From the NCBI GenBank assembly GCA_964549305.1, contig CAZJVM010000004.1, positions 6,738-70,737 on the forward strand: DNA of 64,000 nucleotides. The letters are read 5' to 3'. Positions 27,201 to 64,000 of this stretch are shown one piece after another. The DNA comes from an uncultured bacterium (lineage in GTDB: Bacteria > Schekmanbacteria > GWA2-38-11 > J061). Made by a program: the position numbers and the translations under genes. The notes below the pieces were generated by a model that was not told the DNA's origin, ran no database searches, and saw only the letters and a list, made by a program, of their open reading frames with translations. Each line of letters starts with the position of its first letter. Position 1 is the stretch's first letter.

Positions 27201-27532
27201 ATATGGGTTTTCACATAATGGCAACAAAAGGAACTCATGAAATATTTAGAATAAAAGGCATCGAATCAACATTTGTTAAAAAAGTTCAGGAAGGAAGACC
27301 GCATATTGTCGATGTTCTGAAAGACGGTAAAATTAACCTTGTAATAAATACCACATCGGGGAAACAGTCTGTGGAGGATTCCTTTTCCTTGCGAAGGACA
27401 ACTCTTGTAAAAAATATTCCTTACTGTACGACTATGGCAGGTGCAACTGCGGCAGTAAGGGGAATTGAATCACTGCTAAAAGGAAATCTAGCTGTAACAT
27501 CGCTTCAGGAATATTATAAAAGTGACAAATAA
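24257..27532 (+). CDS. carB: Carbamoyl-phosphate synthase large subunit
   Basis: [29 protein letters not shown], duplicated ATP-grasp domains, C-terminal MGS domain; TTG start. Confidence 0.99.
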
Positions 27533-32523: not shown

Positions 32524-32708
32524 AAATAAAAAAGTTTTTTGCAGATAAATCTCTACAACATTCGGCAAAACTTTACAAAAAAAAGATATTTAATAAAAAC
32601 ATTTCAAATTACCATGCCTGCAATAACTAATGTGAAATTATGAATTTTAACAATGCGTTATATTGAATCACCTAATTATTTAACATTTTTTTTCTGCCTT
32701 CTCCCGCC

Positions 32709-33428: not shown

Positions 33429-33432
33429 AAAT

Positions 33433-36038: not shown

Positions 36039-36056
36039 GACAAAGGGAGAACAAAT

Positions 36057-37478
36057 TTGGACATAGTAATCGGACAACTTAACTCGATACTCGGCAAGGA
36101 TAACGTAATCACCGATCCGAATGAGCTTTCCGCATATTCAGACGGAAATCTCACTTTTATTCCTCCCCGTTCTCCGATTTTTGCCGTAAGACCCTCGAAT
36201 TCCGAAGAAATAAGAGAAATACTCAAGGTCGCCGCTTTAAACAAGATACCCGTAACTCCTTCGAGCTCCGCAGGGTCGGGACACGGAGGTTCCATTCCTG
36301 CGGTACCCGGCATTACAATTGACCTCAGACGTATGAAGAATATCGAACTTATCGACACATCGAGCAGAAACGCGATTATAGAACCGGGAGTCACCTTTTC
36401 CGAACTTCAGGAGAAAGCGCATGAACAGGGACTGAGAGTATTGACACCCGTTGAAATAACCGCCGGTTCATCGGTCCTTTCCACATATCTTGATATGGTG
36501 CCGCTTTTTTCATGGCCAAGATACGGAACGGAATCAATTCTCACAATGGAAACGCTCATTCCAAACGGCGAACTGATAAAAACAGGTATAGCGGCAATTC
36601 CCGTAATAGACAAACCCTATTTCCCCTTTGGCACAAACCCCTCTTACATCAACAAAATATGGTTCGGCGCTCAGGGGACTCTGGGCATTGCGACCAAAGC
36701 AGTGATAAAACTTAAAACACTTCACAAAACGGTTAAAACTCTCTTCATTCCCGTCAATAGTTTCGAAGAGTCCTTCCCCGTCTTGAAGGAGTTAAAGAGA
36801 TTCGGTTATGCTGTTGAATTTTTCCTTGCAAACCCCACATATCTTGCCGGAATGATTGCAGATGACGAACAGGAACTTTCCGAAATAGCCAAAACTCTGC
36901 CTCCTGTAACTGCCGTCATAGTACTTCGCGGTGAAGAGGAAGAGGTTGAATATCAGAGAGAGGACATCGCCGAGCTTTGCGCAAAATTCAAACTTGATTG
37001 TCTTGAAGAGCTTTCGGGAGTGGAAAATGCCGCTTCTAAAATACTCGATGAAATCGAAAATCCTGGCGGATATGAAAAGAGAAAAAGCTTCAAGGGAGGT
37101 TACTGCGTCATTCCTTTTATCTGTATGCTTCCGCAAATTCCAATGTTCAGACGTGTTTTGGGACAAATGACTCAGGCATTCAAGTATAATTCCGCCGATA
37201 TCGGAGAACTTTTCATACCTGTTGAACCTGCTCGCGGGCATTTTCAGTACAGTTTCCGCTATAATCCCGAAAATCCTCAGGAGATGATGATAACAAAAAA
37301 ACTTTTTGAGGTACTGAGCGGAGCGCTCATAAAAATGGGCGGATTTTTTTCGAGACCCTACGGAAACTGGGCGGAATTGGTCTATGGGAAAGCAGGTGCC
37401 TATAAAACAATGTTAAGAAATATCAAGGAAACAATTGACCCTGAAAATATAATGAATCCCGGAAGGTTAAATTTGTAG
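36057..37478 (+). CDS. FAD-binding oxidoreductase (FAD_binding_4, VAO/PCMH/GlcD superfamily)
   Basis: ITIDLRRMKNI, IIEPGVTF, GAQGTLGIATK, IDPENIMNPG. Confidence 0.88.
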   Translation: MDIVIGQLNSILGKDNVITDPNELSAYSDGNLTFIPPRSPIFAVRPSNSEEIREILKVAALNKIPVTPSSSAGSGHGGSIPAVPGITIDLRRMKNIELIDTSSRNAIIEPGVTFSELQEKAHEQGLRVLTPVEITAGSSVLSTYLDMVPLFSWPRYGTESILTMETLIPNGELIKTGIAAIPVIDKPYFPFGTNPSYINKIWFGAQGTLGIATKAVIKLKTLHKTVKTLFIPVNSFEESFPVLKELKRFGYAVEFFLANPTYLAGMIADDEQELSEIAKTLPPVTAVIVLRGEEEEVEYQREDIAELCAKFKLDCLEELSGVENAASKILDEIENPGGYEKRKSFKGGYCVIPFICMLPQIPMFRRVLGQMTQAFKYNSADIGELFIPVEPARGHFQYSFRYNPENPQEMMITKKLFEVLSGALIKMGGFFSRPYGNWAELVYGKAGAYKTMLRNIKETIDPENIMNPGRLNL

Positions 37479-37488
37479 GAAACAGAAT

Positions 37489-38688
37489 ATGACTGAAGAA
37501 TATTGCTACCCATTTACAAGAAAAAAACTCAGCGATTATTACGAAATGCTGTGGCGCTGCGCAAAGTGCGGTTATTGCCGCAATGTTTTCCCTTCTGATA
37601 CCGAAGACGAAAGATTCGCAAGGCAATGCCCACCGGGCGAAAGATTCAGATTTGAGGCGTACTACGCATCAGGACGTAACGAGATAACCAGAAAAATGAT
37701 TGAAGGCAAGCAGAGTCTCACTCCTCGCCTCAGGCACATCCTCTACACGTGCACAACCTGTAATGCCTGCGAAGAATGGTGCGAAGTGACACAGGGCTTG
37801 AATACCTTAAAGATAATCAATGCCGTTAGAAAATATTTTGTCGAGCACGGTGGTGAACTTTTGCCTGGCCACGAAAAAATCATCAAAGGCATCAGGCGAA
37901 ACCATAACCGCCTCAACAGAAATAACAGGGACAGGCGCGGATGGCTTGAAGATGCGGCATCCGAAAAAACTGAACAAGCCGATGTCGCCTATTTCGTAGG
38001 TTGCAGGTCATCGTTCAGAAGAACTGAAATAGCAAACAACGCCTACGAGCTTTTGACGAAAAAACTCGGTATCGGCATAACCTTTCTCGAGGACGAAAGA
38101 TGCTGCGGAAGGCCATTGCTTGAAATAGGGGCGGAAAAGGACGCTTTTAAACTCATGTCCCACAATCTTGAAGAAATAAAAAAAACCGGCGTAAAAACTG
38201 TCCTCTTTACCTGCGCCGAATGTTTCTCTCTCTTCAACGACCTCGAACGCTACGGCTTTGAAAAAGATTTTGAAACAATTCATATAAGCGAATATCTTGC
38301 AAGAGTGATAAAAGAAAAAGGTGTTTCCTTCAATGAAATGCCAAAAAAAGTAACATTTCACGACCCCTGCTATCTCGGAAGACATCAGGGCATTTATGAA
38401 GACCCGAGAAACGTAATCGCTTCCATTCCGGGCACCGAGCTTGTGGAAATGCCGAGAAACCGCAAAAATGCCTGGTGCTGCGGCGCGGGAGGCGTGGTGA
38501 AGGAAGCATATCTCGATTACTCTCATTGGATTGCCGCGGAAAGATTCGAGGAGGTCAAAAAAACCGAAGCACAAATGCTTATTACTTCCTGTCCCGGGTG
38601 CAAAGAAAGCTTATGGGGACAGGCTAAAGTCAATAATGTCGAAATCTTTGACCTTGCTGAACTTATAAACAAACAGATTAAGGGTTGA
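37489..38688 (+). CDS. (Fe-S)-binding CCG-domain protein (GlcF/HdrD-like)
   Basis: CAKCGYC..CP, CTTCNAC..WC, YFVGC, RCCG, TCAEC, HDPCYLG, WCCGAGG, SCPGC. Confidence 0.9.
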   Translation: MTEEYCYPFTRKKLSDYYEMLWRCAKCGYCRNVFPSDTEDERFARQCPPGERFRFEAYYASGRNEITRKMIEGKQSLTPRLRHILYTCTTCNACEEWCEVTQGLNTLKIINAVRKYFVEHGGELLPGHEKIIKGIRRNHNRLNRNNRDRRGWLEDAASEKTEQADVAYFVGCRSSFRRTEIANNAYELLTKKLGIGITFLEDERCCGRPLLEIGAEKDAFKLMSHNLEEIKKTGVKTVLFTCAECFSLFNDLERYGFEKDFETIHISEYLARVIKEKGVSFNEMPKKVTFHDPCYLGRHQGIYEDPRNVIASIPGTELVEMPRNRKNAWCCGAGGVVKEAYLDYSHWIAAERFEEVKKTEAQMLITSCPGCKESLWGQAKVNNVEIFDLAELINKQIKG

Positions 38689-38691
38689 TAA

Positions 38692-40185
38692 ATGGAAGAG
38701 TTTACAAAGGAAAACAGCCGGATTCTCTTTGAGCTGGCCAATATAGTGGGAAACGAGTGGGTGTCAAACGAACCGGAAATAATCTATGCCCATTCAAGAG
38801 ACGTCAATATGTATCCTGACAACCTGTCTTCCGTTTTGAGACCGCCTCATTATGTGGTGCTTCCGGCAAATTCGGAAGAAGTCCAGAAAATAGTAAGCAT
38901 AGCAAAAAACCACAAGATACCCATAACGGTCCAGACAACGGGACTGAACATTGCCGGAGTTTGCGTCCCTCCAAAGGGCGGCATTCTTATGGATATGAAA
39001 CGACTGGACAAGATTTTGGAAATAGACGAAGTAAATTGCACGGCTACCATACAACCTTACGTAACCATAGCTCGCCTTTCCTGCGAACTTCAAAAGAGAA
39101 AAATGTTCCTTCCTGTTCCGGGCAACCCCTCAACGGCAAGCGTTATTTCAAACATACTAGTAGGTCTCGGACTGAAAGTCACTAACCGTGTCGGAAGGCA
39201 GGAACAGGGAATCGTAGGGTTTAAAATGGTGCTTCCTGACGGAAGTTTCTTCAAGGTCGGTTCGGGCGCGGACCCCTTCATACCGAAAGATTTCTGGCCT
39301 CACGGACCGGGGCCCGACCTTCAGCTCTTTCCTGTACATTCCATAGGAACAACAGGAATAGTAACGGAAATGACTATTAAATGCTGGCTTCGCGGAGAAA
39401 AATACAAAGAACTCTGGGTGTCCTATGAAGATATAGACAATGCTGGGAAAGCTTTTGCGGAGCTTGCAAAAAAAGAAATCTGCAAGGGAATAAATCTTTA
39501 CGGTGGAAATAAATATACTTCTTACGCCACAGACACCCGTGAAGCAATGGAAAGGATGATAAGGGCAAACCCGGAATTTCAGCTTGTCCTGTCAATGGAA
39601 GGCACGCAAAGAAGAATTGATTATGAAGAAAAAGTTGTAAGACAGACGGCTGAAAAAACCGGAGGAATAATAATCACTGACAAATTCAAACCTTACGAAA
39701 GCTTCGAAGAATCTCACTTAGGAATGTCAGGAAGTTTTTATTCCGACTATTCAATGAAGTACTGGGGTTCAAGGGGTGCAAACTGGGTTGCAGCAGGTTT
39801 CCCGTCTCCTGAAAGAGTTGCTGATATGTACAAGGCATATTGTCAGGCGATAATGGACGACCCCGAATATTCAGACCCGGATTTCGGCAACGGTGAATAC
39901 TGGCGTTCGATTATCGCCTATCCCTATGAAGGAGGACATTATTTCTTTAACGAACACGGAATAGACAGCCATCCCGGAGACCCTAAATGGCAGGAAGTTG
40001 TCAAACGAATAGGTTCTGCAATACCCCGTTACGGAGCACAGCGAGGTCTGCTGATAATGGGATTTAACCGCGCACCGAGGGAAGGCCTGCCACGCGTCAC
40101 CGGTCCCTATTATGATGTCGCAAAGGGAATTAACAGCAAGCTTGACCCTGGGGGAATAATGCAGCCAGGATTCGTATTTCCTTAA
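38692..40185 (+). CDS. Second FAD-binding oxidoreductase (FAD_binding_4)
   Basis: GGILMDMKRLDKILEID, IQPYVT, GTTGIVT, LDPGGIMQPG. Confidence 0.88.
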   Translation: MEEFTKENSRILFELANIVGNEWVSNEPEIIYAHSRDVNMYPDNLSSVLRPPHYVVLPANSEEVQKIVSIAKNHKIPITVQTTGLNIAGVCVPPKGGILMDMKRLDKILEIDEVNCTATIQPYVTIARLSCELQKRKMFLPVPGNPSTASVISNILVGLGLKVTNRVGRQEQGIVGFKMVLPDGSFFKVGSGADPFIPKDFWPHGPGPDLQLFPVHSIGTTGIVTEMTIKCWLRGEKYKELWVSYEDIDNAGKAFAELAKKEICKGINLYGGNKYTSYATDTREAMERMIRANPEFQLVLSMEGTQRRIDYEEKVVRQTAEKTGGIIITDKFKPYESFEESHLGMSGSFYSDYSMKYWGSRGANWVAAGFPSPERVADMYKAYCQAIMDDPEYSDPDFGNGEYWRSIIAYPYEGGHYFFNEHGIDSHPGDPKWQEVVKRIGSAIPRYGAQRGLLIMGFNRAPREGLPRVTGPYYDVAKGINSKLDPGGIMQPGFVFP

Positions 40186-50494: not shown

Positions 50495-53224
50495 TCAAAG
50501 CTTTTTCGAATATCTCGTAAGGAGCAGAGAGTTGCTTACAACCGAAACCGATGAAAACGCCATTGCAAGTGCACACCACTGAGGCGGCAATGTGATAGGA
50601 TAAAAAATGCCTGCGGCAATCGGAATACCGAGAGCATTGTAAAAAAGAGCCCAGAAAAAATTCTGCTTAATCTTTGTAAGCGTTTTCTTGCCAAGCTTTA
50701 TCGCCCTATAAACATCAAAAAGGTCGTTTTTCACAAGGACTACTTCTCCCGTCTCCTTCGCTACATCTGTCCCCGACCCTATGGCAATTCCTATATTCGC
50801 CTGTGCAAGCGCGGGAGCATCATTTATTCCGTCACCCACCATCCCCACATAGAACCCTTCGGACTGATATTTTTTTACGGCAGTGATTTTATCTTCCGGC
50901 AAAACTTCCGCCTCAAAAGAATCTATGCCCACGCTTTCCGCTACGATTGAAGCGATTTTTCTGTTGTCACCGGAAATCATACAGGTCTTGATTCCCAAAG
51001 AATGGAGACTCTCTATCGATTCTTTCGCGTTCTCCTTAACGACATCGGATATTCCGAAAACTCCCGCGGCTTTTCCGTCTTCAGCCACATATACGAGAGT
51101 ATTGCCCCGCGCCTGCAGATTTTCCGCATCTGACGCAACGGGAGTTATGTCAACATCGTTTTCTTCCAGAAAAGCCCGCTTTCCCACAAGTATTTTAGAG
51201 TCCCTGATTTTACACCTTACGCCCTTACCGCTTTCTTCCCTGAAAGAGCTTGCGGCAAGAATATCGCTGTTTTTTTCTTTTCCGAAGTCCACTATCGCGT
51301 CTGCGAGAGGATGAGTTGACAGTTTCTCGGCGCTCACTGCCTTTTTCAGCAATTCTTCACCTTCTATTCCCGGGGCAACACAGTATTCGGTAACCTTCGG
51401 CTCGCCTTTCGTAAGAGTGCCTGTCTTGTCAAATATCACCATCCCAAGCTTTGATATATTTTCAAGTATGCTTGCCTTTTTAAACAATATTCCCCTGTTA
51501 AGCCCTATCCCGCTGCCAACCATAATGGCAGTGGGGGTTGCAAGTCCCAACGCGCATGGGCAGGCAATTACAAGAACGGAAATCATAATTGTAAAGGCAA
51601 AAATAAAGGGCATTCCTTTTACAAGGTACCATATGCAGAAACTAATAATGGAAATTGTGACAACAGTGGGCACAAAATAGTTTGACACGGTGTCGGCAAA
51701 GCGCTGTATGGGCGCTTTATCCGCCTGCGCTTCCTGCACCATACTGATTATTTGCGAAAGCACGGTATCCCTGCCTATCTTTGTGGTCTTTATTTTAAGA
51801 TGCCCTGATTTATTTATGGTAGCGCCCGTAACATTGTCGCCTGTCTGTTTCTCCACGGGTATCGACTCTCCCGATATCATAGATTCATCCACGCTTGACG
51901 CGCCTTCCAGAATTTCTCCGTCAACAGGAATTTTTTCACCCGGTTTTACAACGACAATGTCACCTACCTTCACATAGGACGCGGGCATTTCCTTTTCTTC
52001 TCCGTCAACAATAACTACCGCCCTGTCTGCCTGCAATTCAAGAAGTTTCTTCAGAGCCTGTCCCGCCTTGCCCTTTGCGCGAGCTTCCATCATTTTCCCC
52101 AGAAGAATGAAAGTTAAAAGTTCGGGAGCAACCTCGAACATAAGGTGATGCATAGCACCTCCGGAACCGGAAGCCATTTCACCGGACATTCCTTCCATTC
52201 CCGTACCTATAAAGAAGAGAATCATCACACTGTAAAAATACGACGCGCTGATTCCAAGTGAAACAAGAACATCCATATTCGTGGCTTTATTTTTTAAAGA
52301 ATAATACGCGCCTCGGTAAAAGGGAAATCCCCCCGTAACCTGAACCGCCGTAGCGATTGCAAAGAGAATGTAATCCTGAATGCCTCCAAAGGGGCGAAAA
52401 TCTATGCCAAGCTGAGGCAGATGAACAAGAAGCGCGACTGGGATTGTAAGAAAAGCCGTAAGAAGAAACGCTCTTTTTTCCTTATCAGCGGTACTCTTAT
52501 CTTCACTTTCCTCACCTTCTTCAATGGCGGTATATCCCGCGTTTTTAACAAGACTGAAAATATCCGCCGGGTTAATTTCGCGGGGGTCATATTCCACAAC
52601 GCCCTCTTCCATGGGAAAATTCACGGATACATTCTTTATTCCCTGAGCTTTTGCAACGACCTTTTCGATTGTTTTTGAGCAATTGACACAACTCATACCC
52701 TCAATTTTAAAGCGTATATTTTCGGCATCGCCGGAGTATAGGGAGCGCGCTTCATAACCGAGGTCTTTAATCTTTGCGATAATCTCCTCTTTCCCGAGAG
52801 TTTCGAGGTGTTCCACTGTCAAGGTTTCAAGGGGAAAATTCACCACTGCCCTGCTTACCGCATCAACTTTGTTCAAACCTCTTTCGATTGTGCCCGCGCA
52901 ATTCACGCAGGACATTCCGCCTATTTTAAAAGATGAAGTTGCGGTTTCTCCTCTCTGTTTTTCCTCGTCATCATCTGTAAAATTGTCTTCTCCGGGCGCG
53001 TCACCTGCCGGCGTTTCTCCTGCATTATATCCCTCATTGACGATTGCCTCTCTCATTTTAACTTCATCCACAAGACTGTCGTCATAGGAAACACGGGCAA
53101 GTTCCTCTTCAAGGGAAACTTCCGCGCCGAGAACTCCTTCGAGTTTACTCAACGCTTTCGTCACAGCCCGTACGCAATGCTCACAGGACATACCTCCAAC
53201 CTTTATCCGGCAAGTTTTTTCCAT
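50495..53224 (-). CDS. copA: Cu(I)-translocating P1B-1 ATPase with three N-terminal HMA domains
   Basis: GMSCEHC, GMSCVNC x2, [32 protein letters not shown] and MAFSS Cu(I) ligands. Confidence 0.97.
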
Positions 53225-54081: not shown

Positions 54082-55494
54082 ATGAAAAAATACAAATCCA
54101 TACTCTGTATATATCCATACAAAAAAGAACTCTCCTCCACAGGTTTTATGCCTCCTTTGGGGCTTGAAAGCATAGCCACTTCAATAAAGGACCTTTGCGA
54201 GGAAATAAACATTATTGATCTTCGCTTCGAAAAAAAAGGGGTTGATTTTTATCTGTCAAAAAAGCCCGATGCCGTTTTAATAAGCGTTAACTGGTATTAT
54301 GAAAAAAACAGCACAAAAAAAATAATACGTTCTATTCCCCCTGAAACCTTTACCATCGTAGGCGGGAGGGAGGCTACGCAAAATGCCGATAAATTTCTCA
54401 CTGACTGCCCCAACATCGATATTATAGTTAAAGGGGAAGGTGAACAAACAATCAGAGAAATTCTCCTGAATAAACCGCTGAATGAAATCAAAGGAATAAG
54501 CTATCGAAACGGCAAATCAATTGTAAACAATCCGCTGAGAAATATTTCAGAATTGAACCACTTCTACGATATTGACAGAAATCTGAGAAACTATAATTAC
54601 ACATTCATAATCGACGGCCTAAACCTCGGACACACTGTTGACGGCATCTTTTCATCACGCGGTTGTCCTTACAACTGCAAATTTTGCTCATTCAATTTTA
54701 CTCCCACGGGTGAAAAAATAAAATGGAGAGGAAGAAAACCTGAGGACGTGGTTGAAGAAATCAAAGAAATTAAATCAAAGACAATAATATTCCTCGATGA
54801 AAACTTTACCCACGATACCAAAAGAGTTGAAAGCATATGCGATCTCATAATTGAAAATAAAATTAAAAAACTTTTCGTTGCCAATGCGAGAATTGAAATT
54901 TCAAAAAATCCGGAAGTTTTGTCTAAAATGCACAAAGCAGGTTTCAGAATACTTACTCTTGGTATCGAATCATCACAGGATCACGTGCTAAAAAACCTCA
55001 GAAAAGGGTTCAACAGAAAGCAGTTGGAAGACGCATTCAAAGTGTTTGCAAAATTCAAGATACTAACTCACGGATACTTCATTATAGGAAACCCCGGAGA
55101 AACAAAAGAGGAAATGCTTGATATTGGCGTTTTTTCGAAAAAAATCGGACTTTACTCCATAGGGGTAAGCAACCTGAGATGCGCTTCGACAACTCCTCTC
55201 TATTCGGAAATAATGAACCTTGACGGATACCATATTGATAAAAAAGAAAGAGTTTATTCGGAAAAGTATTCCGTTAAGGACATTAAAAAAATCAGAAAAT
55301 CTATTTATAAAATTTTCTATACCCCTTCAACTTTCAGAAAAATCTTTCTTTTCTTCGTAGGAAATAATTTGCTTACACCAAAACTCTTTTTTAATATTGC
55401 CAAATCTTCAGGTACGGCATTTGGACGATATTTACGAAAAAGAAATAGGAAAAAAGAGAAACAATTGCGAAAAGCTCAGGCAAATTACAATTGA
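54082..55494 (+). CDS. Cobalamin-binding (class B) radical SAM protein
   Basis: PPLGLESIA, VGGREAT, GEGE, SRGCPYNCKFC, DENFT, LGIES, GYFIIGNPGET. Confidence 0.9.
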   Translation: MKKYKSILCIYPYKKELSSTGFMPPLGLESIATSIKDLCEEINIIDLRFEKKGVDFYLSKKPDAVLISVNWYYEKNSTKKIIRSIPPETFTIVGGREATQNADKFLTDCPNIDIIVKGEGEQTIREILLNKPLNEIKGISYRNGKSIVNNPLRNISELNHFYDIDRNLRNYNYTFIIDGLNLGHTVDGIFSSRGCPYNCKFCSFNFTPTGEKIKWRGRKPEDVVEEIKEIKSKTIIFLDENFTHDTKRVESICDLIIENKIKKLFVANARIEISKNPEVLSKMHKAGFRILTLGIESSQDHVLKNLRKGFNRKQLEDAFKVFAKFKILTHGYFIIGNPGETKEEMLDIGVFSKKIGLYSIGVSNLRCASTTPLYSEIMNLDGYHIDKKERVYSEKYSVKDIKKIRKSIYKIFYTPSTFRKIFLFFVGNNLLTPKLFFNIAKSSGTAFGRYLRKRNRKKEKQLRKAQANYN

Positions 55495-55655: not shown

Positions 55656-57278
55656 ATGCAAAAATTCTTTGAAAAAAAAGATTTAAAGAGCATCGCGGTT
55701 TTCACGGGTACGATACTTTTATCAATCCTTTGCATTATCCCTGTCGTAAAAGCCGAAGTGGAAAGTGCCGAAATGTCATTCTCCGGACAGGGCAAAAAAG
55801 TGGATCTTTCCCTGAAGCAGGCGATTGAAATGGCAGTGGAGCGAAATCTCGATGTAATGTTTGAGCGTGTCAATCCACTCATAAAACAGCAGGATATAAG
55901 AAACGAAAAATCTAGATTCGACCCAAGCTATTATCTTAAATCAAACTTTGAAAAAACAATCAAACCTACCGGAACCGACCTTGCAGGTACTCCTACGGCA
56001 GTAAACAAAAATTTTAGATGGGATACGGGATTTAAGGGCGAAATAGCAACAGGCACGGATTACAGTCTCGATTTTACAAATATCAGGCAAAAAACGAACT
56101 CCAGCTTTACAAACCTCAATCCAAGTTACACCTCAGAAATCAAACTAAACATAACTCAACCTTTGCTGAAAGATTTCGGACTGTCCGTAAATAAAACGAA
56201 TATTGTAATTGCAAACAATAACAGAACAAAATCCGTTCACAAGTTGAAAGATTCAATAATCAGGGTTGTTTCCGATGTGGAAGAAACATATTGGGATCTT
56301 GTTTACAGCCGGAATGACTTGAGAGTTAAGGAACTTTCACTCAAACGCGCCGACGACTTTCTTGAAAGGACACAGAAACAGGTTGATGTGGGAACCCTTG
56401 CTCCTATAGATATCGTTCAGGCCGAGGCTGAAGTAGCAGCAAGAAAGGAAGGCGTTATCGTTGCGGAAACAAACATAAGGAATGCTGAAGACCGGCTTAA
56501 ACAGCTTATAAACATTGTCGATGCGGAGGGTTGGGATGTCCAAATCATACCTCTTGACAAACCGCAGTTTAAGGCAATTCCTATAGACCTCAATGTGACA
56601 ATCCAAACCGCTCTTTCCAAAAGACCGGACATTAGTCAGGCAAAAATTAGTCTCGAAAACAGCATTATCTCCAAGAAGTTCGCCAAAAATCAGCTTCTCC
56701 CCACTCTTAATTTCGTGGGCTCTTTCGCAATTAACGGATTGAGCGGACAAAAAAGGCCTTCGAGTTTCGGCGCACAGGACCCTACTGTTGTCTTTGACCG
56801 CTCTGACAATCCGCTGGGCGAAAGTTATGAAGAAACACTCCAGAGAATAGGTACAGGAAATTATTACAGTTGGCTTGTGGGAATAGAACTTGACATACCC
56901 CTGGGAAACAGGGCAGCAAAAAGCAGATATGTAAAAAGCTCTCTTGAAAACGAACAGGCGGTCATCAACCTTAACAATACACGGCAAAAAGCTATCGTAG
57001 ACATAAGGACGGCAGTGAGAAATGTCCAGACAAATATCAAGCGAATAAACACCACCACAAAAGCTTCTGAGCTTGCCCGGGAAAAACTCGAAGCAGAGGA
57101 AAAGAAGTATGAAGTCGGAATGTCAACTGCGCACGATGTCCTCGAGTTTCAGGAAGATGTTGCAACTGCTGAAAGCAATAAACTGAAAGCGATAATTGAC
57201 TACAATAAGTCACTTGTCTCTCTAGATAAGGCAAGCGGCACAACACTTGAAAGCAATCAGCTCGTTTTTCAGGAATAA
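55656..57278 (+). CDS. TolC-family outer membrane efflux protein
   Basis: LSLKQAIEMAVERN, QPLLKDFG, YWDL, two OEP repeats, EEKKYEVG. Confidence 0.9.
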   Translation: MQKFFEKKDLKSIAVFTGTILLSILCIIPVVKAEVESAEMSFSGQGKKVDLSLKQAIEMAVERNLDVMFERVNPLIKQQDIRNEKSRFDPSYYLKSNFEKTIKPTGTDLAGTPTAVNKNFRWDTGFKGEIATGTDYSLDFTNIRQKTNSSFTNLNPSYTSEIKLNITQPLLKDFGLSVNKTNIVIANNNRTKSVHKLKDSIIRVVSDVEETYWDLVYSRNDLRVKELSLKRADDFLERTQKQVDVGTLAPIDIVQAEAEVAARKEGVIVAETNIRNAEDRLKQLINIVDAEGWDVQIIPLDKPQFKAIPIDLNVTIQTALSKRPDISQAKISLENSIISKKFAKNQLLPTLNFVGSFAINGLSGQKRPSSFGAQDPTVVFDRSDNPLGESYEETLQRIGTGNYYSWLVGIELDIPLGNRAAKSRYVKSSLENEQAVINLNNTRQKAIVDIRTAVRNVQTNIKRINTTTKASELAREKLEAEEKKYEVGMSTAHDVLEFQEDVATAESNKLKAIIDYNKSLVSLDKASGTTLESNQLVFQE

Positions 57279-57575: not shown

Positions 57576-58988
57576 ATGAGTCCAAAAAAAGTAGTGGATA
57601 TTATCAAGGAAAAAAATATCCAAATGATAGATTTGCGTTTTATGGATTTTCCCGGCGTATGGCAGCACTTTTCAGTACCTGTTTCGGAGTTTGACGAAAG
57701 CAGTTTTGAAGATGGTTTCGGTTTTGACGGTTCAAGCATAAGAGGATGGCAACCAATCAATGCCAGTGATATGCTCGTTATTCCCGATCCCTCAACAGCG
57801 ATGATAGACCCTATTCTCCAACATCCCACACTTGTCCTTATCTGCAATATAGTTGACCCCATAACTAAGGAAAAATATTCGAGAGATCCGAGAAATATAG
57901 CTCAAAAAGCCGAAAGCTATCTTAAATCCACACAGATAGGTGACACTGCATATTTCGGTCCGGAAGCGGAATTTTTCATTCTCGACGATGTAAGGTTTGA
58001 CCAGAATGAACATCAGGGATTTTACTACCTCGATTCCTCTGAAGGCAGATGGAATAGCGGAAAAGAGGAAAATCCGAACCTCGGTTACAAACCGCGCTAC
58101 AAGGAAGGCTATTTCCCCGTACCGCCAACGGACAGCCAACAGGATTTAAGAACCGAAATCGTGCTTGAAATGCAGAAAGTGGGATTGCAAATAGAATGTC
58201 AGCACCACGAAGTTGCAACTTCCGGCCAGGCGGAAATAGATATGAAATACAACACCCTTACAAAAATCGCCGACGATCTGATGTGGTACAAATATGTAGC
58301 GAAGAATGTTGCAAGAAAGCACAACAAAACAGTTACATTTATGCCGAAACCAGTTTTTCGGGACAATGGTTCGGGAATGCATACCCATATTTCCATATGG
58401 AAGGACGGCGAACCTCTTTTTGCCGGAAATGAATACGGCGGAATGAGTGAAATGGCAATGTACTTCTTAGGCGGCATTATAAAACACGCGTCTTCGCTTT
58501 GTGCTTTCGTGGCACCTACGACAAATTCTTACAAGCGCCTTGTCCCCGGTTATGAGGCACCAGTGAATCTGGCGTATTCAAGCCGTAACAGAAGCGCAAG
58601 CCTGAGAATTCCAATGTATTCGCCAAGCCCCAAAGCAAAAAGAGTGGAAGTACGTTTCCCTGATCCCTCTTGCAACGGATATCTGGCTTTTTCGGCTCTT
58701 CTGATGGCCGGTCTTGACGGCGTAGAGAACAAAATGCATCCCGGCGACCCTCTTGATAAGGACATTTACGAGCTTGAACCCGAAGAACTTGCAGGCGTTC
58801 CCTCAGTGCCTTCTTCACTTGAAGAAGCAATCAACGCGCTTGAAGAGGACAATGAATATCTTCTCAAAGGAGATGTCTTCACTCAGGATGCAATTGACAA
58901 GTGGATTGAATATAAAAGAGTAAACGAAGTTGATGCGCTGAGATTAAGACCTCATCCTTATGAATTTGCTCTTTACTTTGACATTTAA
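57576..58988 (+). CDS. glnA: Glutamine synthetase type I
   Basis: [50 protein letters not shown]; Tyr in DIYEL at the adenylylation position. Confidence 0.99.
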
Positions 58989-59048
58989 TTACGTTAAAAG
59001 ATATTCCATATTTCTGTGGATGTTTCATTAACAACATTCAGGCAATCA

Positions 59049-59084
59049 AAAACTAGCTCATCCTCCAAGAGATGAGCTAGTTTT
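59049..59084 (+). terminator. Intrinsic terminator after glnA
   Basis: AAAACTAGCTCATC-CTCCAAGA-GATGAGCTAGTTTT. Confidence 0.85.
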
Positions 59085-59226
59085 GTCCGCGGTATCGTTG
59101 ACTGCCGTCAGGTGTATTAAAGCATTTTCTACCATTGCAACCACCTTGTACACGCTTGACAACTGTCATTTTTTAATTTACCAATTACTGGGGTATTTTA
59201 ACTATTTTTTAACGGGAAGGACATCT

Positions 59227-60594
59227 ATGTCTTTAAATGCAGTATTTTGGGGATGCCAGATACCGGCAAGATATCCTTTTATAGAAAAGTCTCTGAGAAG
59301 AGTATTCGAAGAGCTTGAAATTTCTCTAATGGATATCGACGGTTTTACCTGTTGTCCCGAAAAGGCACTGGTGCATAATATGAGCGAAGATGTCTGGTAC
59401 CTCACTGCGGCAAGAAATCTCGCCGTTGCTAGGGAAGGCGCGGGTAGCAAACCCCTCACTCTTATTCAGGCGTGTAATGGTTGTTTCAGCACACTGAAAA
59501 CCGTTAAGGAAAATCTTGACCACGATTTAAAGGTTAAAGAAAAGGTCAACAAGGGGCTTGCTAAGGTTAATCTTGAATATAAGGGCGGCGTGGAAGTCAA
59601 ACATATCGTTGAGTTTCTGCACGATGTAATAGGTGCTGATACGATTAAACATAAAGTTAAAACCGCGCTAAACGGTATGAAAATTGCCGTGCATCCCGGA
59701 TGCCATATGACAAGACCTTCTTCCTCCATAGATTTTGACGACCCCCTTGTACCGAAGAAATTTGACCAGCTGATTAAAGTGCTGGGAGCGACAAACGTAA
59801 ACTATCCGAGCAAAATGCTCTGTTGCGGCGGCGAACTTACAAACATAGGAAATATGGATGAAGGAATTGCCGTAACGCGCCAGAAACTTCTCGAAACGAA
59901 GGGCCTTAAAGTTGATGCAATAGCCGTTGCCTGCCCCAACTGTTTCAAGCAGTTTGACAACCAGCAGTTTATGATGCAGAGAAACGGAGAAGAATTCCAG
60001 ATACCGGTTTTCTATATCTCGGAATTAGTGGGATTGGCGCTCGGAATTCAGCCAAAGGAGTTGGGAATCGAGGGACACCGCATAAAGACTGACAGTTTTT
60101 TTTCAAGACTGAGCGAAGAAGCGGAAAAAGCCGGCAAAGTGGAAGAACATTTTGACCTTGAAGCGCTCAGAAAGTGTTATGAATGCCGCGCCTGTATGGA
60201 TGACTGCCCGTCGGTGAAACTCCTCGACAAATACGACCCAATCACAATAATGGAAAAAGTGCTCGACGGAAAAATCGAAGAAGCAGTGGAAGACCAGGCC
60301 GTTTGGGAATGTCTCGAATGTCATACGTGCAGTGAATTATGTCCGCAGGGTTTCGGTATGGAAAAGGTATTTACCACATTGAAGCATCTTGCGGGGGAAA
60401 AAGGCAACAGACCAGCGGCAGTCAAAAAAGGGCTTGATATGTTTTCAAAAACAAGCAAAATCGGTGAACCTTCAGTTGCTCAGCGAAAAAAATTTAATCT
60501 TCCCGAGCCTTCTTCAAGCGGATTTGCTCAGTGGAAGGAGATGATAGAATCAATGGAATCTGAAGCCCCAGAGCAAGGAGAGGAAAATACGTAA
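59227..60594 (+). CDS. HdrB-like (two CCG domains) fused to HdrC-like 2x[4Fe-4S] domain
   Basis: WGCQIPARYP, TCCP, ACNGC, HPGCH, LCCGG, ACPNC; then CYECRAC..DCP and WECLECHTCSELCPQG. RBS GGAAGGA before ATG 59227. Confidence 0.9.
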   Translation: MSLNAVFWGCQIPARYPFIEKSLRRVFEELEISLMDIDGFTCCPEKALVHNMSEDVWYLTAARNLAVAREGAGSKPLTLIQACNGCFSTLKTVKENLDHDLKVKEKVNKGLAKVNLEYKGGVEVKHIVEFLHDVIGADTIKHKVKTALNGMKIAVHPGCHMTRPSSSIDFDDPLVPKKFDQLIKVLGATNVNYPSKMLCCGGELTNIGNMDEGIAVTRQKLLETKGLKVDAIAVACPNCFKQFDNQQFMMQRNGEEFQIPVFYISELVGLALGIQPKELGIEGHRIKTDSFFSRLSEEAEKAGKVEEHFDLEALRKCYECRACMDDCPSVKLLDKYDPITIMEKVLDGKIEEAVEDQAVWECLECHTCSELCPQGFGMEKVFTTLKHLAGEKGNRPAAVKKGLDMFSKTSKIGEPSVAQRKKFNLPEPSSSGFAQWKEMIESMESEAPEQGEENT

Positions 60595-61691
60595 TGAACC
60601 ATAACTACCAGAAAGACATATCGGGATGCGGTTTATCAGGGCTTATAAGTCGTTCGAAAAAAAGAATTCCCGGAGAAGTCATAATTAATTCTATTTGCCC
60701 TATGAGAGACAGGGGTAACGGTCTTGGCTCGGGTTTTGCCGCATATGGAATTTACCCTGATTATGCCGATTATTACGCGCTTCATATTATGTTTGACCAC
60801 GAAACGGCAAAAGAACTTGCCGAGGAATTTATCGAGTCAAATTACGAAATCGCCAAACAGGAAAGAATTCCCCACAAGCCCACTGAAAACATTATTTACC
60901 ATCCAATCTTATTCAGATATTTCGTAAAACCGAAGGAAAACAGGCCCGATGCCCAGTTTGCCGAGCTTGGAGACGATGATTTCGTAGTAAGAAGCGTTAT
61001 GAATATCAACTCGACCATCGAAGGCGCATACGTCTTTTCAAGCGGCAAGAATATGGGCGCATTCAAGGGAGTGGGATTTCCCTCTGAAATCGCGGAATTC
61101 TATATGCTCGAAGAATATTCCGGATATATATGGACTGCACATAACCGATTCCCCACAAACACACCCGGATGGTGGGGAGGGGCACACCCTTTCACTCTTC
61201 TTGACTGGTCAATAGTGCACAACGGAGAAATATCCTCTTACGGTATAAACAAAAGATATCTTGAAATGTTCGGGTACAGTTGTACCCTTTTGACTGACAC
61301 TGAGGTCGTAGCCTATCTTTTCGACCTGATGATAAGAAAACACGGATTGAGCTACGATATTGCCTGCAAAGCGCTTGCATCACCTTTTTGGAAGGATATC
61401 GATGATTTGCCGGAGGATGAAAAAGAAGCGATGACATGGCTGAGAATGGTCTATGGAAGCGCACTTCTAAACGGCCCCTTTTCCATTCTTTTCGGGCACA
61501 GTAACGGCCTCATCGGCTTGAGTGACAGGATTAAACTGAGACCTCTTGTCTGTGCCGAAAATGAGGATATCGTATATATGGCTTCGGAGGAGTCTGCTAT
61601 AAGGGAAATTTGCCCCAAACCTGAAAGGGTTTGGTACCCCCGGGCAGGAGAACCAGTAATTGTTAATTTGAATAATACAGAGACCAATTAA
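60594..61691 (+). CDS. Glutamate synthase, glutamine amidotransferase (Ntn) subunit, split archaeal type
   Basis: SGCG near the N-terminus, RGNGLGSGFA, AHNRFPTNT, HPF, VHNGEISS, TDTEV, DRIKLRP, ASEES. Confidence 0.9.
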   Translation: MNHNYQKDISGCGLSGLISRSKKRIPGEVIINSICPMRDRGNGLGSGFAAYGIYPDYADYYALHIMFDHETAKELAEEFIESNYEIAKQERIPHKPTENIIYHPILFRYFVKPKENRPDAQFAELGDDDFVVRSVMNINSTIEGAYVFSSGKNMGAFKGVGFPSEIAEFYMLEEYSGYIWTAHNRFPTNTPGWWGGAHPFTLLDWSIVHNGEISSYGINKRYLEMFGYSCTLLTDTEVVAYLFDLMIRKHGLSYDIACKALASPFWKDIDDLPEDEKEAMTWLRMVYGSALLNGPFSILFGHSNGLIGLSDRIKLRPLVCAENEDIVYMASEESAIREICPKPERVWYPRAGEPVIVNLNNTETN

Positions 61692-63197
61692 ATGAGAAAA
61701 AGCTATCTTATCCCGGAATTTAAAGTTGAAATAGATCATACCAGATGCAGAAGATGCAAACGATGCATTATGAACTGCAGTTATGAGGCATTGAGCTTCA
61801 GTGACAGGGTGGTTGCAGACCATTTTAAATGCGTTGCCTGTCACAGGTGCGTTGTTTTCTGTCCGGAAAATGTAATCACAGTGAGAGAAAATCCCTTGGA
61901 TTTCAAAAGCAGTTACAACTGGACAAACAGGCATCGCCTCGACATCTGGAAACAGGCGGAAACAGGCGGAATTCCCCTTACGGGAATGGGAAACGATCTC
62001 CCCTATCAAATTCTGTGGGACCATATGGTTCTCGATGCCTGTCAGGTAACAAACCCGTCCATCGACCCTCTGAGAGAACCGATGGAATTACGGACATATC
62101 TGGGGAAAAAACCTGACTTTCTGGATTTCGAAAAAGACAATAAAGGTAAAATCAAGCTAAAGGATACGATGCCCAAAAACATAAAGCTTGAAATGCCCTT
62201 AGTCTTCTCGCCAATGTCTTACGGTTCGATTAGTCTCAACACCCATAAGGCAATGGCAATGACCGCAAAGGAGATGGGCATCGTAATGCACACCGGCGAA
62301 GGGGGACTTCACAAGGATTTATACGATTACAGCGATTACACCATAGTTCAGTGCGCCTCAGGACGTTTCGGAGTACACTCCGAATATCTCAAAATGGGAA
62401 TTGCCGTAGACATTAAAATCGGACAGGGCGCGAAACCGGGTATCGGCGGACACCTTCCCGGCGAGAAAGTGGGACTTGACATATCAAAAACACGTATGAT
62501 ACCTATTGGCACAGATGCATTGTCGCCTGCGCCCCATCACGACATTTACTCAATCGAAGATTTGCGGCAGTTGATATATGCAATCAAGGAAGCAACCGAT
62601 TACAAACCGGTATCAGTCAAGATTGCCACCGTTCATAATGTCGCCGCTATCGTAAGCGGCATAGTGCGTGCCGGCGCAGATATTGTTTATCTTGACGGCT
62701 TCAGGGGAGGAACGGGAGCATCACCTAAAATAATCCGCGACCACGTGGGCATACCTCTGGAATTAGCGCTTGCCGCCGTTGACGACAGATTGAGGCAGGA
62801 AGGCATCAGAAACCACGCATCGATTATTGCGGCAGGAAGCATAAGGTCAAGCGCGGATGCAGTAAAGGCAATTGCACTTGGAGCAGATGCCGTGGCAATA
62901 GGCACAGCGGCACTTGTTGCCGTGGGATGCCGTGTATGCCAAACTTGCCATATGGGAAAATGTGCCTGGGGAATAGCGACTCAGCGCCCTGAATTGGCAA
63001 GGAGGCTTGATCCTGAAATTGCGGCAGAGAGACTTATGAATATGCTTCGCGCCTGGAATCTGGAAATAAAAGAGGTGCTCGGAAGTCTCGGACTCAATGC
63101 AATAGAATCACTCAGAGGAAGCAGGGAAAGGTTGAGAGGCATAGGCCTCGATGCTCAGACTCTTGATATTTTGGGCATAAAACCGGCAGGCAAATAG
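61692..63197 (+). CDS. Glutamate synthase FMN-binding subunit with N-terminal ferredoxin domain, split archaeal type
   Basis: CRRCKRC, CVACHRC; MSYGSIS, TGEGG, QCASGRFG, IKIGQGAKPGIGGHLPGEKV, SPAPHHDIYSIED, CRVCQTCHMGKC. Confidence 0.95.
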   Translation: MRKSYLIPEFKVEIDHTRCRRCKRCIMNCSYEALSFSDRVVADHFKCVACHRCVVFCPENVITVRENPLDFKSSYNWTNRHRLDIWKQAETGGIPLTGMGNDLPYQILWDHMVLDACQVTNPSIDPLREPMELRTYLGKKPDFLDFEKDNKGKIKLKDTMPKNIKLEMPLVFSPMSYGSISLNTHKAMAMTAKEMGIVMHTGEGGLHKDLYDYSDYTIVQCASGRFGVHSEYLKMGIAVDIKIGQGAKPGIGGHLPGEKVGLDISKTRMIPIGTDALSPAPHHDIYSIEDLRQLIYAIKEATDYKPVSVKIATVHNVAAIVSGIVRAGADIVYLDGFRGGTGASPKIIRDHVGIPLELALAAVDDRLRQEGIRNHASIIAAGSIRSSADAVKAIALGADAVAIGTAALVAVGCRVCQTCHMGKCAWGIATQRPELARRLDPEIAAERLMNMLRAWNLEIKEVLGSLGLNAIESLRGSRERLRGIGLDAQTLDILGIKPAGK

Positions 63198-63219
63198 GTT
63201 GGGAAAAGAGGTACTTGGA

Positions 63220-64000
63220 ATGGATATTAATACAATCGTAGACAGGGAAAATAAAACTCCTGGTAACGGAAAAGGTAAAATGACAAACTCTGAAAAAATA
63301 GTGATAGATGCCAAAGGGGTTTATTACAGAGAGCTTAACGAGCAAATCCGCGACGCTATTCTTAACAGGGGAGTCAGGGAAGTAGAGCTCAATAATGTAA
63401 ACGGTCAGCGTTACATAGGCGACGGAATTAAAGCCAAAGCCACAATTATTATAAACGGAGTGCCGGGAAACGACCTCGGGGCATTTATGAACGGACTTAC
63501 AATTTTAGTTAACGACAATGCTCAGGATGCCGTAGGCAACACAATGAATACTGGAAAAATAGTCATTAACGGCCATTCAAGCGATGTAATCGGTTACGGG
63601 ATGAGAGGCGGTAAAATTTTTATCAAGGGAGACGTGGGATACAGAGTTGGTATTCATATGAAAGAATACAAGACGACTGTTCCTTATATAATCTGCGGCG
63701 GAAGAGCGGGAGATTTCCTCGGAGAATATATGGCAGGCGGAATTCTTGCAGTACTCGGACTCGATGAAGATGACCCTCGCCCCTTAACGGGAGATTATCT
63801 CGGCACAGGAATGCACGGGGGGATAATATACGTGCGCGGCAAAGTCAATGAAAAGACTCTTGGCAAAGAAGTGGGAATCGTCGATTTTACTGACAAAGAC
63901 TTTGATCAGCTTGGCAAAGCCCTGAAAGAATATGCCGAAGACCTCAATCTTGACTTTGATAAAATTATGTCAAAACCATTCACTAAAATAATACCCACCA
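63220..64000 (+). CDS. Glutamate synthase GXGXG-domain subunit (3'-truncated by window edge)
   Basis: Not in the ORF track because it has no stop. Manual translation gives MDINT...NGQRYIGDG...GVPGNDLGAFMNG...AQDAVGNTMNTG...GYGMRGG...GDFLGEYMAGG...GTGMHGG. Confidence 0.92.
   Translation, partial: MDINTIVDRENKTPGNGKGKMTNSEKIVIDAKGVYYRELNEQIRDAILNRGVREVELNNVNGQRYIGDGIKAKATIIINGVPGNDLGAFMNGLTILVNDNAQDAVGNTMNTGKIVINGHSSDVIGYGMRGGKIFIKGDVGYRVGIHMKEYKTTVPYIICGGRAGDFLGEYMAGGILAVLGLDEDDPRPLTGDYLGTGMHGGIIYVRGKVNEKTLGKEVGIVDFTDKDFDQLGKALKEYAEDLNLDFDKIMSKPFTKIIPT

Follow-up and report, generated by a model that had tools for sequence, protein, structure and literature searches.

Glutamate synthase (GOGAT or GltS), the main route of ammonium into biomass, has been described in GltB-GltD and ferredoxin-dependent forms (PDB 1EA0, 7MFM, 1OFD), and has also been known from genomes for decades in an archaeal-type form, in which a separate amidotransferase, a flavin mononucleotide (FMN) subunit with a ferredoxin domain, and a GXGXG subunit are accompanied by a variable extra input subunit (PMC3087415, PMC9012536). 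The electron donor of that split form was guessed to be F420 and was not demonstrated in the papers surveyed: Kaster et al. listed as unproven an F420-dependent form whose 'subunit 4' is FrhB-like, Chadwick et al. noted that FrhB paralogues adjoin glutamate synthase genes in anaerobic methanotrophic (ANME) archaea, a 2021 review of iron-sulfur flavoenzymes described the archaeal enzyme only as open reading frames (ORFs) for individual domains, and no purification of an FrhB-type or HdrBC-type split enzyme was reported in the surveyed papers on the system (PMC3087415, PMC9012536). The present analysis concerns a 64,000-nucleotide stretch of DNA from an uncultured bacterium of the Schekmanbacteria (GenBank assembly GCA_964549305.1, contig CAZJVM010000004.1, positions 6,738 to 70,737; the whole stretch is termed 'the window'), in which a gene for a fused heterodisulfide reductase (Hdr)-like protein, HdrBC, is coupled to three genes for a split glutamate synthase. 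A preliminary description of this DNA had proposed HdrBC as an electron-input module for GOGAT; the genomic comparisons reported here support that interpretation, and make it reasonably probable that the four genes encode one enzyme, a split GOGAT with HdrBC as a thiol-fed fourth subunit whose donor is most likely a lipoyl group.

The locus resembles the FrhB-type split enzyme in the separation of its catalytic domains, and differs from it in that the extra subunit is HdrBC. With the GltB-GltD and ferredoxin-dependent enzymes it shares the same catalytic domains and FMN chemistry, but it is divided among three polypeptides, has no GltD, carries an extra 2x[4Fe-4S] domain, and displays a four-cysteine cluster motif where Bacillus subtilis GltA has three. 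HdrBC itself is similar to the HdrB and HdrC subunits of methanogens (PDB 5ODC, 7BKB, 8RVU) in its two CCG motifs, two ferredoxin-type clusters and HdrB fold. Unlike those proteins, it is fused in the order B then C, scores below the equivalog cutoffs, occurs in a bacterial host, and has no HdrA or hydrogenase partner in the window; its partner is biosynthetic, and the proposed flow, from thiol to acceptor, would be the reverse of that in methanogenic Hdr. A ferredoxin-like dicluster joined to CCG domains is also found in HdrD, DsrK, TfrB, GlcF, GlpC and LutA, of which HdrD and DsrK act on disulfides or protein disulfides; all of these display the opposite domain order, however, and their families match the window protein much more weakly.

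Two further systems provide precedents for a link between Hdr-like proteins and lipoate. In sulfur oxidisers, lipoylated LbpA works with Hdr-like complexes, and dihydrolipoyl dehydrogenase (E3) serves as the link to NAD (PMC6067878). As in that sHdr-LbpA system (PMC6067878, PMC10332631), an Hdr-like iron-sulfur module is here tied to a lipoate protein, to genes of lipoate ligation or synthesis, and to dihydrolipoyl dehydrogenase, although in relatives of the window's operon only. The sHdr genes are organised as hdrC1B1A-hyp-hdrC2B2 with sulfur transferases and function in dissimilatory sulfur oxidation, whereas a single HdrBC here accompanies GOGAT genes; the carrier encoded in Firmicutes is an E2-type lipoyl domain of 77 amino acids (aa) rather than a GcvH-like LbpA; and the flow proposed for sHdr is toward lipoate, while that proposed here is from lipoate into the enzyme. 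No hdrC1B1A-hyp-hdrC2B2 set, lbpA, or DsrE or TusA gene was found in the window. In the second system, the Ehe hydrogenase cluster of Culexarchaeia, GcvH is encoded next to HdrB, and its lipoyl group was proposed as the disulfide substrate of HdrB in organisms without coenzyme M (CoM) and coenzyme B (CoB) (PMC9723716). That case differs in involving a membrane hydrogenase and energy metabolism with no link to glutamate synthase, and is likewise a proposal. The logic suggested for HdrBC and GOGAT thus mirrors the sHdr-LbpA-E3 scheme in reverse, and echoes the GcvH/HdrB proposal. No paper linking HdrB or HdrC, CCG proteins or lipoate with glutamate synthase was found in the full-text literature searched, in agreement with the earlier remark that no characterised example was known; most subscription journals lie outside that literature, and an earlier description is possible.

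The HdrBC fusion gene and the adjoining glutamate synthase genes

The four genes lie on the forward strand. The first, hdrBC (59227..60594; ATG at 59227, TAA at 60592-60594), encodes the 455-aa proposed electron-input subunit, and its stop codon overlaps the start of the second gene (TAATG, 60592-60596, with one A shared), which encodes a glutamine amidotransferase subunit of the class II Ntn type (60594..61691; PF00310, GATase_2) that displays Cys12-Gly13 after a short leader. The amidotransferase stop directly abuts the ATG of the FMN/synthase subunit gene (TAA-ATG, 61689-61694, with the boundary at 61691/61692), whose 501-aa product (61692..63197) matches PF01645 at 456 bits, the Glu_synthase domain spanning residues 106-468. 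After a gap of 22 nt, the gene for the GXGXG subunit, corresponding to the C-terminal domain of GltB, begins at an ATG at 63220 (63281 is a possible alternative start; PF01493, 120 bits) and runs past the window edge at 64000, its end being at the window-equivalent position 64037 as read from L001, a metagenome contig that carries an identical HdrBC protein and was used for the DNA beyond nt 64000. The three consecutive ORFs carrying PF00310, PF01645 and PF01493 represent the separate-gene, archaeal-type layout of glutamate synthase, and the order of genes and both tight junctions are as first described.

The HdrB-like half of the fusion (residues 5-297; 59239..60117), which contains the two CCG motifs, matched HdrB of PDB entry 8rvu_b in a phmmer search (216 bits, E 9e-63), and the HdrC-like half (residues 311-426; 60157..60504), which contains two CX2CX2CX3CP motifs, matched HdrC of 5odc_C (54 bits). 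In Pfam, PF02754 matched both CCG domains (89 bits), and a 4Fe-4S dicluster domain was identified toward the C-terminal end (residues 314-376); NCBIfam identified HdrB (TIGR03288) at residues 5-294 and HdrC (TIGR03290) at residues 315-441. The curated equivalog cutoffs were missed in each case (259.6 versus 345.15 bits for TIGR03288, 52.8 versus 160 for TIGR03290, and 124 versus 450 for NF041780). The CCG motifs take the form CX(31-39)CCX(35-39)CXXC, with ligands C10, C42, C43, C83 and C86 in the first and C159, C199, C200, C236 and C239 in the second, the ten cysteines expected for two non-cubane [4Fe-4S] clusters. The ferredoxin-type motifs of the HdrC half comprise C317, C320, C323 and C327 and C362, C365, C368 and C372; beyond this motif pair, residues 312-426 align to HdrC chains with the C-terminal extension included. 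All 18 cluster cysteines (ten CCG and eight ferredoxin-type) are invariant among 62 aligned homologues, so that the original account of two fully liganded CCG domains followed by an HdrC-like domain is borne out in full.

A structural model of HdrBC produced with AlphaFold2 (mean pLDDT 91.2, pTM 0.85) was compared with known structures using Foldseek. The modelled HdrB half matched HdrB from complexes of M. marburgensis, M. hungatei and M. thermolithotrophicus (8rwn_B, 7bkb_B and 5odc_B) with target TM-scores of 0.92-0.93 and root-mean-square deviations of 1.9-2.0 A, and the modelled HdrC half matched HdrC with a target TM-score of 0.60. Identity between the HdrB half and methanogen HdrB is 33-37%. 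Of the residues that do not vary within the GOGAT-linked clade, most are shared with methanogen HdrB as well, so that the substrate of HdrBC is not revealed by sequence alone. The closest homologues, from Candidatus Schekmanbacteria metagenome-assembled genomes, are 82%, 71% and 61% identical, and public annotation of the fusion reads either 'CoB-CoM heterodisulfide reductase subunit B' or '4Fe-4S dicluster domain-containing protein'.

In two metagenome-assembled genomes of Thermodesulfobacteriota (L074:315-1643 and L081:9842-11389), hdrB is a gene of its own and is followed, in the order seen in the fusion, by a separate hdrC. The hdrB reading frame ends with TAA in L074, where the hdrC ATG comes immediately after it, and with TGA in L081, where an ATG comes three codons on; both stops fall within what is the linker of the fusion. 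The existence of the two halves as separate, ordered genes indicates that the window protein is a true fusion of HdrB and HdrC. Selenocysteine was considered at these in-frame stops and was rejected, since ordinary TAA and TGA codons in the linker, each followed by a new ATG, correspond to separate genes.

Additional features distinguish the glutamate synthase subunits themselves. The FMN subunit begins with a 2x[4Fe-4S] ferredoxin domain (C19/22/25/29 and C47/50/53/57; 61722..61889; Fer4 family matches at residues 11-66), and two CxxCxxCxxxC motifs are present in 64 of 70 full-length orthologues; HdrC would probably dock, and its electrons enter, at this domain. Aligned to B. subtilis GltA (7mfm_G; 230 bits, over GltA residues 865-1176), the FMN subunit displays a cluster motif C413-x2-C416-x2-C419-x4-C424 (62928..62963). 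The corresponding motif of 7mfm_G reads CVMMRACHLDTC, a CxxxxxCxxxxC pattern compared with CxxCxxCxxxxC in the window; C413, C419 and C424 align with the three GltA cluster cysteines, and C416 is an additional fourth. This four-cysteine form was present in all 66 FMN subunits from hdrBC-linked loci in which the motif region was found. In the glutamate synthase literature, the three-cysteine position of GltA is the [3Fe-4S] site, and the four-cysteine motif may hold a [4Fe-4S] cluster instead of the classical [3Fe-4S]. The synthase domain scores 210-230 bits against GltB large chains, the FMN subunit is 63-85% identical across all hdrBC-linked loci, and amidotransferase orthologues beside hdrBC in related loci are 54-83% identical.

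Divergent relatives of these subunits were observed as well. A Schekmanbacteria genome (GCA_016219965.1) contains a second GltB-like cluster adjoining an MTHFR gene (L002:15901-21365, reverse strand), which encodes an 876-aa fusion of GATase and GXGXG domains and two Glu_synthase-domain proteins, 27-33% identical to the window proteins. In a Nitrospinae locus, a 530-aa Glu_synthase-domain paralogue (L007:9496-11088; PF01645, 65 bits) is inserted between the FMN and GXGXG genes.

The generality of the association between hdrBC and gltB was assessed in a scan of one genome per species, in which at least 549 genomes were found to contain an HdrBC relative. The best 80 loci were examined together with six further loci retrieved through searches started from the window protein and from two close relatives, which gave 83 distinct loci; linkage was scored by tblastn with the window's own proteins, the orthologues being 41-100% identical. 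In 82 of the 83 loci, one or more gltB pieces lie no farther than 7 kb from hdrBC and invariably on its strand, the single exception, L029, being a contig that ends 11 nt past its hdrBC match; all three pieces are present in 67 loci. Three more metagenome look-ups displayed the same linkage. The hosts comprise at least ten bacterial lineages, including Schekmanbacteria, Nitrospinae, Nitrospirota, Clostridia/Peptococcaceae (among them the isolate Desulfotomaculum copahuensis), Thermacetogeniaceae, Actinomycetes, Thermodesulfobacteriota, Sumerlaeota and Hebobacteria, as well as archaea (Methanoperedens, ANME-2, Methanogaster, Argoarchaeum and other Methanosarcinales). Adjacency of hdrBC and gltB is far beyond chance, and the survey that the preliminary description had called for was thereby answered in its favour.

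The flanking genes differ between loci (two other Schekmanbacteria genomes contain the same four genes among entirely different neighbours), and the order of the genes themselves varies, with hdrBC first, second or last (hdrBC-amidotransferase-FMN-GXGXG, GXGXG-hdrBC-amidotransferase-FMN, or amidotransferase-FMN-GXGXG-hdrBC). The persistence of linkage while gene order shuffles between lineages argues that hdrBC and gltB form a functional unit. In addition, glnA shares the locus in 21 of the 83 cases, and PII, Amt and ANTAR response regulators recur near the cluster, which supports a genuine role in ammonium assimilation. In a neighbour-joining tree, the HdrBC proteins linked to GOGAT all fell into a single clade with respect to canonical HdrB, and a common class of substrate is therefore plausible. 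Sub-clades follow taxonomy: one of Firmicutes (all linked to lpd, the dihydrolipoyl dehydrogenase gene), one of Archaea (some linked to lplA or hdrA), one of Nitrospirota, and one of Schekmanbacteria with Nitrospinae.

Lipoate and Hdr genes in related operons

Clustering of all neighbouring ORFs revealed no universally conserved fifth gene, but did reveal two lineage-specific sets, both of them related to lipoate; the lipoate genes embedded in hdrBC-gltB operons of the window's relatives are a new observation. Firmicute-type loci carry the first set. A gene for a flavoprotein of 453-471 aa, dihydrolipoyl dehydrogenase, lies within the cluster in 11 Firmicute-type genome loci and in L091, and is positioned between the GXGXG gene and hdrBC in every fully mapped locus (L009, L011, L012, L056, L062, L067, L073 and L091); the representative in L057 is a bona fide member of its family (TIGR01350, 503.5 bits versus a cutoff of 408.8). 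A single lipoyl domain of 77 aa is encoded in or beside the cluster in nine loci, directly upstream of hdrBC where mapped. It matches PF00364 at 76 bits, its best family matches are the E2 lipoyl domains of SucB and AceF, and its Lys41 is invariant. Genes for lipoyl synthase (lipA, in L011 and L012) and octanoyltransferase (lipB, in L012) are also present, so that L012 reads amidotransferase-FMN-GXGXG-lpd-lipB-lipA-lipoyl carrier-hdrBC, and L067 reads ANTAR regulator-glnA-GXGXG-lpd-lipoyl carrier-hdrBC-amidotransferase-FMN. Since they are flanked by genes for glutamate synthase subunits, the Firmicute lipoate genes belong to the operon.

Among the best 80 loci, the most similar HdrBC from a named genome outside the Schekmanbacteria/Nitrospinae clade is the lpd-linked protein of D. 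copahuensis (L009), at 53% identity; that of L091, also lpd-linked, is likewise 53% identical to the window protein. Two of the lpd-linked loci, L009 and L011, have no linked carrier, which indicates that an unlinked carrier is normal. A profile search with the 77-aa carrier returned 586 matches. Free-standing members of this kind were also seen in other surroundings: in a Hydrogenedentes locus (L087; 7102-8240 and 11619-12275), a 79-aa lipoyl protein is encoded beside lipA, with lipB approximately 3.4 kb downstream, and in an Omnitrophica locus (L088:6021-8240), a stand-alone 79-aa lipoyl protein is encoded beside lpd and lipB; no GOGAT genes are nearby in either. These sets look like portable 'lipoyl shuttle' genes.

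The second set is archaeal. In seven closely related ANME-2c/Methanogaster loci, the GXGXG gene is followed by lplA (lipoate ligase; PF21948 and PF10437), its start being immediately adjacent to the GXGXG stop in no fewer than four of the seven. In the Methanosarcinales locus L023, the genes that come after lplA are hdrC, hdrB, an hdrA-mvhD fusion, and one for a GcvH-like protein (PF01597, 109 bits) in which the lipoyl-lysine context is present. A set of hdrC-hdrB-hdrA/mvhD lies upstream, downstream or divergent beside the cluster in 11 Methanosarcinales/ANME-2 loci (L010, L015, L018, L023, L025, L027, L031, L035, L045, L054 and L082), with an hdrA product of approximately 744-768 aa that contains an FlpD/MvhD domain; among the loci examined, HdrA adjoins the cluster only in these 11.

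A comparison of L091 with Pelotomaculum thermopropionicum provides a further hint as to the role of HdrBC. The latter genome, at PTH_0733-0740, is annotated as glnA-gltB-gltD-ilvH-hyp-mazF-hutI-cheY, and L091 (2406-15000) displays the order glnA-amidotransferase-FMN-GXGXG-lpd-hdrBC-ACT-mazE-pemK-GATase-amidohydrolase-response regulator. The two neighbourhoods look syntenic, each with a glnA-GOGAT block ahead of ACT/ilvH, mazEF, amidohydrolase and CheY-like genes. This may reflect non-orthologous displacement of the electron-input module, hinting at equivalence of HdrBC and GltD, in a comparison drawn from annotations only. The Pelotomaculum transcriptome had been considered for a test of co-regulation of hdrBC and gltB, and was dropped when the organism proved to have gltB-gltD instead.

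No GltD or FrhB-like input gene was found within the core cluster or adjoining it, whether in the window, L001 or the inspected loci, and no FrhB-type Pfam family was found on the four proteins or their neighbours. In particular, the gltD-like gene that the preliminary description had allowed for past nt 64000 is absent from L001, and none lies beside the cluster in L002, L004 or the other inspected loci; in L001 the GXGXG gene is instead followed by a flavin adenine dinucleotide (FAD) subunit of the xanthine/CO-dehydrogenase type (FAD_binding_5/CO_deh_flav_C) and then by a 2Fe-2S subunit (Fer2). The only GltD-like sequence in the window lies 24 kb from the GOGAT genes, within a 718-aa protein (33376-35532) that carries Fer2_4, Fer4_20, Pyr_redox_2 (GltD/NfnB-like) and Nqo3-like domains. 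It belongs to a second redox operon (32817-40185), which also encodes a NuoF-type 4Fe-4S fragment (32817-33428), two FAD_binding_4 proteins, and a 399-aa GlcF-type protein (37489-38688) with a ferredoxin domain ahead of two CCG domains; this operon appears to encode a complex of the glycolate/lactate-dehydrogenase type, equipped with an NAD(P)H module.

A proposed electron path and its competitors

These observations suggest a scheme in which HdrBC would take the role that GltD (with NADPH) or an FrhB-like subunit (with F420H2) plays elsewhere. In the HdrB half, a dithiol would be oxidised to the disulfide at a site between the pair of non-cubane [4Fe-4S] clusters, and its electrons would leave singly by way of the [4Fe-4S] cluster pair in the HdrC half, passing to the two [4Fe-4S] clusters in the ferredoxin domain of the FMN subunit, then to the four-cysteine cluster next to the flavin, and finally to FMN, which would reduce 2-iminoglutarate formed from 2-oxoglutarate and the ammonia that the amidotransferase subunit derives from glutamine. 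The motifs for two non-cubane, two HdrC, two ferredoxin-domain and one four-cysteine cluster, together with FMN, could provide an unbroken iron-sulfur path from thiol site to flavin. The dithiol would most likely be dihydrolipoamide borne by a small lipoyl protein. Dihydrolipoyl dehydrogenase would return this protein to the reduced state at the expense of NAD(P)H, or an HdrABC/MvhD complex would possibly do so in ANME-2 archaea; lipoate would then shuttle electrons, two at a time, from dihydrolipoyl dehydrogenase (or HdrABC) to the HdrBC entry subunit. Complex formation, the direction of electron flow and thiol oxidation are inferred parts of this scheme.

The effective potential of the glutamine-driven 2-oxoglutarate/glutamate couple is approximately -70 mV, an estimate from textbook values. 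Lipoamide (E0' = -290 mV; PMC6067878) is negative enough by comparison to drive reductive amination.

The several parts of this proposal differ in strength. That HdrBC is a functional part of the GOGAT encoded in the window is highly probable; that this GOGAT is driven by a dithiol is moderately probable. The identification of that dithiol, in the Schekmanbacteria organism, with a lipoyl-protein can be advanced only tentatively, the donor being deduced from relatives because no carrier gene is linked there. Equally provisional is the suggestion that the operon family represents a lipoyl-protein-dependent glutamate synthase, which would constitute a fourth donor class beside NAD(P)H, ferredoxin and F420. 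The thiol/disulfide source named in the preliminary description is supported by the lipoyl carrier, lpd, lipA/lipB and lplA genes in the operons of relatives; no corresponding gene was found in the window.

A number of considerations weigh against the scheme. Its evidence base is entirely genomic, and CCG domains are not always thiol-active (GlcF, LutA and SdhE-type proteins are examples). When the window and all loci were searched by tblastn and six-frame phmmer with Lpd, LplA, the Firmicute lipoyl domain, E. coli GcvH and HdrA as queries, no lipoyl carrier, GcvH, Lpd, LplA or HdrA gene was found in the 64-kb window; none of these genes was found within 10 kb of the cluster in Schekmanbacteria, Nitrospinae, Nitrospirota, Hebobacteria or Sumerlaeota loci; and the Methanoperedens loci were likewise without them, save for distant LplA-like matches several kb away (L050 and L058). 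None of the 586 lipoyl-carrier matches is named as Schekmanbacteria, a result that neither supports nor excludes a carrier there. The free-standing lipoyl-protein family also occurs away from GOGAT genes, in three contexts beside lipA/lipB or lpd. Finally, the accessory genes track lineage, and could be lineage-specific add-ons.

The most durable alternative, although an unlikely one, is that HdrBC is a mere iron-sulfur wire or adaptor that docks ferredoxin, flavodoxin or another redox protein, with its CCG clusters acting as relays and performing no thiol chemistry. Most clades have no thiol-carrier gene near the cluster, several CCG-domain proteins have no known disulfide activity, and the FMN subunit's own ferredoxin domain could accept electrons from ferredoxin, all of which would be consistent with such a wire; the retention of all ten CCG cysteines, and a modelled HdrB fold that reaches a target TM-score of 0.93 to a genuine heterodisulfide reductase, argue for more than a relay, and a pure wire leaves unexplained the lipoate enzymes and carriers found inside the operon in two unrelated lineages.

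Less likely still is a different thiol pair or an HdrA-type complex as donor: CoM-SH plus CoB-SH in archaea, a DsrC-, thioredoxin- or low-molecular-weight-thiol-type donor in bacteria, or a bifurcating HdrA/MvhD complex encoded elsewhere. The adjoining hdrC-hdrB-hdrA/mvhD sets in Methanosarcinales and ANME-2 favour this reading, as does the similarity of the HdrB half to methanogen HdrB, and CoM-S-S-CoB, with an established potential of approximately -140 mV, would still be thermodynamically feasible. Synthesis of CoM or CoB would not be expected in the bacterial hosts, however, and lipoyl proteins are the only thiol carriers encoded inside any examined operon. The HdrA-type source mentioned in the preliminary description has a counterpart in those archaeal loci, and none in the window or the Schekmanbacteria loci, where no HdrA homologue was found beyond similarity to its ferredoxin domain.

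It is quite improbable that HdrBC instead senses thiol state and switches GOGAT through a regulatory disulfide, with ferredoxin supplying the catalytic electrons. Iron-sulfur-dependent reduction of regulatory disulfides is known from ferredoxin:thioredoxin reductase, and the operon is placed among nitrogen-regulated genes; but a stoichiometric, translationally coupled, first-gene position kept across the 83 loci suggests a structural subunit, HdrBC apparently replaces gltD in a related neighbourhood (L091 versus Pelotomaculum), and an NADH-linked E3 with a carrier amounts to an electron supply chain rather than a sensor. That the three gltB-like genes encode a paralogous enzyme served by HdrBC, for example one like N-methylglutamate synthase, is scarcely credible: three-piece GltB-like enzymes of other function do exist (MgsABC), and divergent paralogues occur in L002, L007 and L016, but the high identity of the FMN subunits across linked loci, the PF01645 score, the conserved cluster motif and the recurring linkage to glnA, PII, Amt and ANTAR regulators all speak for glutamate synthase, and GOGAT needs a redox input where MgsABC does not.

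Should the lipoyl-fed scheme prove true, Hdr chemistry would extend from energy metabolism to biosynthesis, Hdr-type non-cubane clusters would gain a first function of that kind, and the role of lipoate would widen past 2-oxoacid metabolism, glycine cleavage and sulfur oxidation. It would also provide a rationale for the lipoate ligase genes of anaerobic methanotrophic archaea, and would correct the 'CoB-CoM heterodisulfide reductase subunit B' annotation, which can mislead metabolic reconstruction of uncultured organisms. The hypothesis bears on many anaerobes, among them Methanoperedens and ANME-2 methanotrophs, Nitrospirota, Peptococcaceae and members of several candidate phyla.

Neighbouring genes in the window

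Upstream of hdrBC, at a distance of 238 nt, lies glnA (57576..58988, forward strand), which encodes a type I glutamine synthetase (TIGR00653, 681.8 bits versus a cutoff of 429; Pfam Gln-synt_N and Gln-synt_C) and had been correctly placed in the preliminary description. The intergenic region contains a terminator-like hairpin followed by TTTTG (59049..59084, forward strand; the fold of 59040-59095 is -21.9 kcal/mol), and because this element separates the two genes, glnA probably forms a separate transcript. As judged from these features, hdrBC and the three gltB genes probably constitute their own tightly coupled unit, distinct from glnA. A scan for consensus promoters and terminators returned sites no more numerous than in shuffled controls, and the glnA hairpin was not listed among them.

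The wider neighbourhood tends to hold glutamine-consuming genes. Aspartate/ornithine carbamoyltransferase and carbamoyl-phosphate synthase large chain genes lie at 19655-27532 in the window, and in the ANME-2 locus L026 a carbamoyl-phosphate synthase small-subunit-like gene (identified by eye from its sequence, with no family scan) is found upstream of PII-Amt-glnA-hdrBC. Elsewhere in the window, a TolC-like OEP gene is located just upstream of glnA (55656-57278), two genes encode B12-binding radical SAM proteins (31045-32568 on the reverse strand and 54082-55494 on the forward strand), and a copper-resistance set on the reverse strand (50495-53224) comprises a P-type ATPase, an HMA chaperone and a CsoR-type repressor, as seen in L001.

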